A DNA stretch of 64,000 bases from Saccostrea echinata (lineage: Eukaryota): the NCBI RefSeq assembly GCF_033153115.1, contig NW_026889785.1, positions 2,666,001 to 2,730,000 of the forward strand, in the 5' to 3' direction. Below the pieces are notes generated by a model. That model was not told where the DNA came from. It ran no database searches and saw only the letters and a program-made list of their open reading frames with translations. Position numbers and translations under genes: made by a program. This document shows positions 8,712-10,232 of the stretch, piece by piece (the first letter of the stretch is position 1; the number at the start of each line of letters is the position of its first letter).

Positions 8712-10232
8712 TTTTAGCTCTACTGGTCAGAGACCAGAAGAGCTTATGCGATAGTAATGTGTCCGTCGTCCGTCCGTCCGTCTGTCTGTCTGTCTGTAAA
8801 CAATTTTTCAAAATGCTACTCCTCCTACAGTTTTGGTCTTATTTCAATATAACTTGGCACACAAGTAGACTACACTAAGATACATAATTCTGTGTATCGG
8901 TTTTTGATTTCGATGAACGGTGTTGCCATGGTTACTAAAAATAGAAATTTCTGTGAAAAACATTCAAAATGCTACTCCTCCTACAGTTTTGATCTGATTT
9001 CAGTATAACTTGGCACACAAGTAGACTATACTAAGATGCATAATTCTGTGTATCGGTTTTAGATTTCGATGAACGGTGTTGCCATGGTTACTAAAAATAG
9101 AAATTTCTGTGAAAAACATTCAAAATGCTACTCCTCCTACAGTTCTGTTCTGATTTCAGTATAACTTGGCACACAAGTAGACTATACTAAGATGCATAAT
9201 TCTGTGTATCGGTTTTTGATTTCGATGAACGGTGTTGCCATGGTTACTAAAAATAGAAATTTCTGTGAAAAACATTCAAAATGCTACTCCTCCTACAGTT
9301 CTGATCTGATTTCAATATAACTTGGCACACAAGTAGGCTATACAAAGATGCATAACTCTGTGTATCGGTTTTTGATTTCGATGAATGGTGTTGCCATGGT
9401 TACTAAAAATAGAAATTTCTGTGAAAAACATTCAAAATGCTACTCCTCCTACAGTTTTGGTCTTATTTCAATATAACTTGGCACACAAGTAGACTACACT
9501 AAGATACATAATTCTGTGTATCGGTTTTTGATTTCGATGAACGGTGTTGCCATGGTTACTAAAAATAGAAATTTCCTTGAAATACTTTCAAAATGCTACT
9601 CCTCTTACAGTTTTGATCTGATTTCAATATAACATGGCACACAAGTAGACTATAATAAGATACATAATTCTGTTTATCGGTTTTTGATTTCGATGAACGA
9701 TGTTGCCATGGTTACTAAAAATAGAAATTTCCTTGAAATACCTTCAAAATGCTACCCCTACAGTTTTGGTCTGATTTTAGTATTACTTAGCATACAAATA
9801 AACTACACTAAGATACATAATTCTCTGTACCAGTTTCGGATTTTGATGAATGGTGTTGCCATGGTTACTAAAAATAGACATTTTCTTGAAATACTTTCAA
9901 AACGCTACTCCTCCTACACTTTTTGTCTGATTTCAGAATAATGTGGCATACAAGTAGACTACAGAGATACATAATTGGTGTTATTGTTTTTTGATTTTGT
10001 TGAATGATGTTTCCATGGTTACTTAAATCAAAATTTCAGTAAAATTGTTTTAAAAGGCTACTCCTCCTACAGTTTTAGTCTGATATAATAATAAATCTTG
10101 CCAAAAAGAGACTAAACCAAGGATCATTATTCTATTTATTGCTGTTGCAAAGTTTCAAGTCCAAGTGCTACTTTTATCTTCCTTTATAAATACAACCAGT
10201 AGAGCTACAGTCTCATCAGAGACTTCTGGTTT
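8712..10232 (+). mobile_element. HINE family A, full length, with about nine 156-bp satellite monomers
   Basis: subTIR AGCTCTACTGGT at 8716-8727, partner IR at 8733-8744, (GTCC/GTCT)n microsatellite, monomers starting at 8809, 8965, 9121, 9277, 9433, 9589, 9745, 9898; 3' subTIR ACCAGTAGAGCT at 10195-10206 and AGTCTC-atca-GAGACT hairpin; T-rich flanks without a TSD. Confidence 0.93.

Follow-up and report, generated by a model that had tools for sequence, protein, structure and literature searches.

Positions 8716..10231 of the window (i.e., the whole 64,000-nucleotide stretch of DNA analyzed) are occupied by a nonautonomous Helentron (HINE) with 156-bp repeats, each of which contains an X-box-like palindrome. 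This element (copy A; + strand) is complete, with termini common to thousands of genomic sites. Its 5' subterminal inverted repeat (8716-8727) is nested in a hairpin with an inner inverted repeat (8716..8744, + strand; fold, -10.7 kcal/mol) and is followed in the left module by a GTCC/GTCT microsatellite (8761..8797, + strand) of the type reported for oyster HINEs (PMC7492417, available part). The central array, identified by tandem repeat detection, comprises 8.2 monomers of 156 bp (8807..10084, + strand). Beyond it lie a 12-bp 3' subterminal inverted repeat that is the complement of 8716-8727 (10195..10206, + strand) and, as determined by folding, a stem-loop with a 6-bp stem and a 4-nt loop (10209..10224, + strand). 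The 12-bp length of the subterminal inverted repeats is within the range of 11 to 15 bp that defines HINEs, and the inner inverted repeat, the left-module microsatellite, and the 3' stem-loop beyond the subterminal repeat are likewise defining features. T runs were present at the element ends, and, as judged from occupied sites, a target duplication of at least 3 bp was absent in 44 of 50 scored copies. The element has no coding capacity, and its center consists of tandem repeats. The 156-bp array thus sits inside a HINE, in agreement with the first-pass annotation, which had described it as mobile. At two loci (L079 and L125), HINE copies were arranged in head-to-tail tandem, as expected for rolling-circle copying.

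Within the 64-kb window, the 14-mer highlighted by that annotation occurred exactly 12 times and with one mismatch three times, always on the + strand and at the positions it had given. Copy A contains exact palindromes (annotated without strand) at 8922..8935, 9078..9091, 9234..9247, 9390..9403, 9546..9559, 9702..9715, and 9855..9868 and one with a single mismatch at 10009..10022. The 14-mer recurs in a second HINE copy (exact at 14973, 15285, 15440, and 15595; one mismatch at 15129 and 15754) and in an old copy (exact at 2046), and the two arrays (8807-10084 and 14849-15881) have one 14-mer per 156-bp monomer. Shuffled sequences yielded a mean of 0.34 matches, compared with the 15 found; given that the monomers in the window are tandem duplicates, these 15 matches count as one event. 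The chance of an X-box-like box in a random monomer of matching composition was approximately 0.0013 to 0.0014.

The proposed identity of this motif as an RFX X-box stood in part. The reverse complement of the 14-mer fitted the consensus quoted in the first-pass annotation at all 12 exact sites, as well as two further X-box consensuses, and the 14-mer differed from the canonical X-box palindrome at two positions, one of its halves being a perfect RFX half-site and the other relaxed. A stricter published consensus, RYYNYY-N(1-3)-RRNRAC (PMC4168999, available part), was matched on neither strand, with the 14-mer one position off. Each monomer also contains one companion box (AAGTT.. type), the first of which (8841..8855, - strand) is at a distance of 66 bp from the X-box-like palindrome at 8922. 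By eye, this companion motif and its equivalents are similar to one of the blocks conserved in the oyster Cg170 arrays.

The second HINE copy (copy B; 14656..15984, + strand), delimited by its repeats and 14-mer matches, is also complete. Its array (14849-15881) corresponds to 6.6 copies, and its first monomer (14795-14901) is a 107-bp unit without a box, followed by six boxes; this deletion was absent from 54 other complete elements. The old copy (1640..2320, + strand) has no ends and retains four monomers that are 76 to 86% identical to the consensus. Only one of these four has the exact box, and the remaining three match it at 9, 11, and 11 of 14 positions. The X-box-like box was absent from the 168-bp and 146-bp arrays of the window. 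The former (53181-54153, with further copies near 6641-7701) has a G/C-rich block and by eye resembles oyster Cg170/HindIII; the latter (33923-34199) is a two-copy array of a different repeat family. Reverse-transcriptase-like fragments were present at 55808-56784, including a weak RVT_1 match (56509-56781) under the cutoff.

Genome-wide, we detected 3,303 5' ends and 4,099 3' ends of the HINE (≤2 mismatches) and 10,694 exact 14-mer sites. An X-box-type pattern based on a general consensus had 49,818 strand matches, compared with 12,731 for the reversed control, and 10,694 of these matches stemmed from the single 14-mer. RFX motif enrichment in such genomes may therefore come from repeats. All 54 complete HINEs that were fetched contained at least one box (1 to 10; median, 5), mostly 153 to 158 bp apart. 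An evenly spaced 200-kb sample of the genome contained only two old HINE copies.

Conservation of the box among HINE monomers

We compiled two sets of HINEs independently of the box. The young set (70 loci selected by an exact 5' end; 69 elements and 339 monomers from one contig) is biased toward young copies because an exact end match was required. The older set consisted of 40 loci that were selected by their 3' end and had no exact 5' end match (33 elements; 117 monomers). Nearly all of the sampled copies came from one contig, with a bias toward intact ends. Identities in the young set were calculated from a MAFFT realignment of 334 of the 339 monomers (length filtered). In this alignment, which slightly favors the box because it is unmasked, identity was 0.962 in the box and 0.886 elsewhere. 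Masking of the box during alignment gave values of 0.942 and 0.887, respectively, and a near-neutral private substitution rate in the box (rank 54 of 156), with one monomer type, which has an insertion adjoining the box, being misregistered. The box window ranked 4th of 156 for conservation, and neighboring A/T-rich 14-mers were almost its equal, the best nonoverlapping window having an identity of 0.943.

The strongest signal was observed between monomer types. Among 14 types, 2 of 14 box columns were variable versus 67 of 134 non-CpG columns (p=0.012); at a looser cut yielding nine types, the counts were 2 of 14 versus 52 of 134 (p=0.085). Substitutions private to one monomer were also depleted in the box in young copies (102 observed versus 150.7 expected after context matching; ratio, 0.68). 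This deficit was mainly at G/C positions (ratio, 0.57; p=0.0001 in the young set) and was not significant at A/T positions (0.84 and 0.93 in the young and older sets, respectively). We rejected sequence context as the source of the G/C deficit, which persisted after context matching.

In the older set, the box had an identity of 0.909 versus 0.827 elsewhere, with 110 private substitutions observed versus 145.2 expected (0.76). Within this set, HINEs whose 5' end was heavily damaged or undetected had 73 private box substitutions versus 93.6 expected (0.78). In the eight oldest monomers, which were found without selection, 90 of 112 box positions matched (0.80), compared with approximately 0.79 outside. 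The constraint on the box therefore peaks between monomer types, declines in single copies and further in older or damaged copies, and is not seen in the eight oldest monomers. A residual deficit such as that in damaged copies would also be expected if the local mutation rate were lower or if selection acted at the level of the host. The per-column comparison proposed in the first-pass annotation, in which a motif no better conserved than its flanks would have counted against the idea, thus revealed a box more conserved than the rest of the monomer. We conclude that the X-box-like box in this HINE is a real, measurably constrained feature.

The substitutions did not sort by their predicted harm to RFX binding, as scored with a hand-built matrix. 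In the young set, tolerated changes (52 observed versus 71.9 expected) were depleted as much as damaging ones (61 versus 83.7), and the same applied to the older set (45 versus 62.8 and 62 versus 82.9, respectively). These results count against a simple RFX-affinity reading.

X-box-like ladders in unrelated repeats

By following the genome-wide X-box-type matches, we found the palindrome in repeats unrelated to the HINE. The most informative is a 1.74-kb inverted-end (TIR) element flanked by TTAA, with 2,185 end matches genome-wide, for which Kolobok and Sola are candidate superfamilies. Copies are located at L082:1742-3490, L145, and L186-L205 (G000:C1 and others), and relatives with the same end module were noted at L076/L136, L172, and L175. 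The element contains ten X-box-like boxes spaced 176, 181, 167, 175, 180, 53, 177, 174, and 174 bp apart, with 0.04 strong hits expected by chance. Of the two outermost boxes, one starts 140 bp and the other stops 129 bp from the element ends. The spacers had no detectable homology to one another, apart from two in the inverted ends that weakly mirror each other. The top words of the element, obtained without a prior motif, were X-box pieces. Most copies have TTAA at both ends, and one end of the element is GA and the other TA; the Kolobok criteria are a TTAA target duplication and RR...YY ends (PMC9587614, available part).

We aligned 23 complete copies of this element from 29 loci (excluding L147, L189, L186, L200, L083, and L204). 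Variants common to several copies were present in 5 of 137 box columns versus 186 of 1,567 others (p=0.002), and singletons numbered 20 of 3,151 in boxes versus 421 of 35,905 outside (p=0.005). Sixteen copies selected by the end alone agreed with these results (p=0.01 for shared variants and p=0.017 for singletons). After trinucleotide matching, the boxes had 5 shared variants versus 17.3 expected (0.29) and 20 singletons versus 38.6 expected (0.52). As in the HINE, box substitutions were unsorted by RFX harm according to the hand-built matrix (tolerated, 10 versus 18.5; damaging, 10 versus 21.9).

A second HINE-like family (L151:931-1890 and L153:1230-2192) has diverged monomers of approximately 150 bp, each with a box and a companion motif, and its boxes are 147 to 153 bp apart. 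X-box pairs 129 to 196 bp apart were also present in further unclassified repeats (L081:1896-3080, L149:1501-1643, L173:1730-2673, and L174:2340-2549), with family-specific spacings of 129, 168 to 186, 170 to 174, and 196 bp. At three other loci (L086:1459, L100:1847, and L019:2392), a perfect palindrome lies at the center of a longer inverted repeat that marks the apparent 5' end of another family. Genome-wide, 1,053 pairs of the symmetric box pattern were separated by 74 to 274 bp, of which 1,032 fell at 125 to 203 bp, 4 at 74 to 124 bp, and 17 at 204 to 274 bp, these counts being dominated by a few high-copy families. A distance of 65 to 67 bp between the companion motif and the box is common to the 156-bp monomer, the ends of the TTAA element and its relatives, and the second HINE. 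Comparison of the flanks of the other box families with the 156-bp monomer yielded no homology past a z of 3.6 except for true relatives. A common A/T phase of approximately 10 bp around boxes was not established, with p values of 0.01 to 0.17 versus dephased controls (9.25 to 10.25 bp; several periods tried).

Six X-box 10-mers were absent from the 13 main oyster HINE clusters (first 400 characters per array in the available part of PMC7492417). Given that these clusters and the 168-bp and 146-bp arrays of the window are without the box, HINEs can spread without it.

Candidate readers of the box

Rolling-circle and cut-and-paste transposases are unrelated. The same internal motif in two unrelated transposition chemistries therefore suggests that it is read by a host factor or acts through DNA structure. 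Across 28 sites, the two halves of the box varied independently (positions 4 and 11 were complementary 7 times versus 8.6 expected), and the box folded with only -0.5 kcal/mol. We rejected a hairpin function on the basis of this lack of covariation and weak folding, both of which favor a site for a dimeric protein over a hairpin. The letters allowed over the 28 sites, which had been picked with an X-box matrix, were X-box-like (GT, mostly T, and then G/A/T, C, C/T, and A). The genome contains six loci with exons for the RFX DNA-binding domain (PF02257), one of which (G000:C22, approximately 8.26 Mb) is, by our reading, of the RFX1/2/3 type.

Judged from these sequence patterns, the palindrome may be where a host RFX factor docks, and it may be retained because it promotes copying of the element, a reading to which we give a little less than an even chance. 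RFX dimers would bind the boxes, positioned between regularly spaced nucleosomes, and the bound RFX would recruit a spacing remodeler. The element ends would thereby acquire a chromatin state, probably in germ cells, in which the transposase supplied by an autonomous element could reach them. Intact boxes would increase the number of descendants that a copy leaves, such that selection would act on copying success, and once a copy was dead its boxes would decay almost like other DNA. Two precedents come from the literature: the nucleosome-displacing yeast factor Rfx1 recruits ISW2 and creates extra-short gaps (PMC9422437), and mouse RFX2 acts in spermatids, shaping spermatid chromatin (PMC12012180). 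Counting against the model, a 156-bp repeat with a 14-bp site leaves a linker of only approximately 9 bp. The first-pass annotation had offered two functions for the array, namely, a benefit to the element itself and the rewiring of nearby host genes. The former fits a constraint that is strong among copying lineages and fades in old or damaged copies, and it fits the presence of the box in unrelated transposons; the latter found no support, as detailed below.

The first alternative, which we regard as unlikely, is that another host protein or a DNA-structure signal (i.e., a bend, hinge, or single-strand hairpin) acts at the box in transposition and that its likeness to an RFX site is incidental. 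The failure of substitutions to sort by RFX score agrees with this explanation. So does the second box at a fixed distance of 65 to 67 bp in unrelated families, which raises the possibility that the unit is structural and larger than the box itself, and mechanical roles have been proposed for oyster Helitron satellites (10.64898/2026.08.08.743475, available part). However, the letters allowed at the 28 sites are X-box letters (with the selection by X-box matrix noted above), the prior-free top words of the TIR element are X-box pieces, and the absent covariation and weak folding argue against a hairpin in particular.

It is somewhat less probable that the box has no function, having been captured once by an ancestral repeat and passively amplified while mutating slowly for local reasons. 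Such a history would accommodate the deficit being mainly at G/C positions and present even in damaged copies, the many HINE families without a box, the box-less monomer of copy B, and the fixed companion box, which hints that some carriers share ancestry. It does not readily account for ten regularly spaced boxes in the nonrepetitive DNA of an unrelated transposon or for the confinement of 1,032 of 1,053 pairs to 125 to 203 bp. Moreover, the deficit survived context matching, and shared variants were more depleted than singletons in the TTAA element (0.29 versus 0.52).

The host-enhancer explanation holds that the element has scattered RFX clusters, that these clusters activate cilia or sperm genes in their vicinity, and that selection at the level of the animal preserves them. 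The spreading of transcription factor sites by Helitrons is an established idea, and both the 10,694 exact sites and the conservation that remains in old and damaged copies (0.76 to 0.78) would suit it. Nonetheless, we consider it improbable because the box decays as copies age and the constraint is greatest on variants common to several copies. In addition, no host genes were recognized when 12 ORFs of the window were compared with Pfam, and none of nine ciliary-gene loci (approximately 3 kb each; a comparison of low power) contained a HINE copy. Ciliary promoters, included as a positive control, yielded only a weak site near the start of BBS5, most first exons not being reached. In this gene (G000:C54:14257802-14258800), one intron-less frame is preceded by a weak X-box-like site just upstream of the start. 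IFT20 (C30/C54) and a B9-domain gene (C24/C9) each appeared twice on different contigs, perhaps as assembly haplotypes. A few HINE copies may have been co-opted by the host.

Equally improbable is that the boxes are an enhancer of the Rep-helicase gene of an autonomous Helentron carried along by noncoding derivatives: RFX is a germ-cell activator in mouse (PMC12012180, available part) and HINEs can arise from Helentrons by deletion (PMC4067079, available part), but the constraint acts among noncoding lineages that need no transcription, and an autonomous Rep-helicase-endonuclease partner was not found among 20 open-ended copies read to 0.8 to 2.3 kb.

The reading of the box as an RFX docking site that aids copying could be extended to the broader proposition that animal DNA transposons in general rely on RFX as a host factor. 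Under this proposition, X-box ladders at nucleosome spacing would have evolved independently in rolling-circle and cut-and-paste families, which would recruit RFX to shape the chromatin of their own copies and gain access to the germline. We advance this generalization as a speculative one that is probably incorrect in its full breadth. If it were true, a large proportion of the strong RFX sites in the genome would originate from transposons and form a potential sink for a cilia regulator. The conserved boxes of nucleosome-length satellites have long been without an assigned reader, and why noncoding transposons keep internal sequence is a standing question. Here, the best-kept part of the monomer contains a recognizable factor site that recurs with similar spacing in transposons unrelated to the HINE, and a candidate host factor can thus be named.

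Comparison with known systems

Elements of this class have been described before, and the available parts of three papers (PMC7492417, PMC5139131, and PMC3879986) report conserved blocks within monomers of this kind but assign no factor to them. A literature search, with the supplement of an oyster satellitome study that possibly holds the monomer (PMC11136912) lying outside its scope, returned no paper on X-box ladders in HINEs or TTAA-type transposons. RFX is not mentioned in the available part of PMC12676858, and PMC11293539 mentions RFX5 at human ERVK only.

The comparisons below draw on the available parts of the papers cited. The element shares with HINE/DINE-1 elements, including oyster Cg_HINE and pearl elements, the subterminal and inner inverted repeats, the GTCY microsatellite, and the 3' stem-loop (PMC7492417, PMC4067079, and PMC3879986), as well as a central array of 140- to 180-bp repeats, a T-rich target without duplication, and thousands of dispersed copies. 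This resemblance suggests a bivalve-type host animal. It differs in its box, the X-box 10-mer being absent from the 13 published oyster clusters as sampled above and the conserved palindrome of the clam element DTC84 being a different one. As for the Cg170/HindIII satellite, two short blocks alone resemble the published CL1 arrays by eye, and clusters CL1-13 are without X-box words. Caenorhabditis Helitrons reportedly carry heat-shock elements with binding and effects on neighboring genes. Like the HINE, these elements combine tandem repeats in a rolling-circle element with clustered factor sites; in contrast, the motif here is common to an unrelated cut-and-paste family, and its sites are candidates identified from sequence.

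The box resembles the RFX X-boxes of ciliary promoters in being a 14-bp near-palindrome with one perfect and one relaxed half, as in secondary X-boxes (PMC4168999). Ciliary X-boxes occur as one or two sites near a transcription start (PMC4168999), whereas those described here are candidate sites in mobile DNA that number 1 to 10 per element with a 156-bp period. The CENP-B box of alpha satellite is another case in which repeats of nucleosome length preserve a short protein-type motif (PMC3879986 and PMC5139131). In contrast to that system, the arrays here are dispersed, short, and not centromeric, the motif is also present in nontandem transposons, and the candidate reader is a winged-helix transcription factor rather than a domesticated transposase. 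Finally, yeast Rfx1 (Crt1) acts with ISW2 at single promoters with no transposon link. It provides a precedent, which the available part of the paper does not extend to animal RFX, for an RFX protein that makes very short nucleosome gaps and orders nucleosome arrays (PMC9422437).
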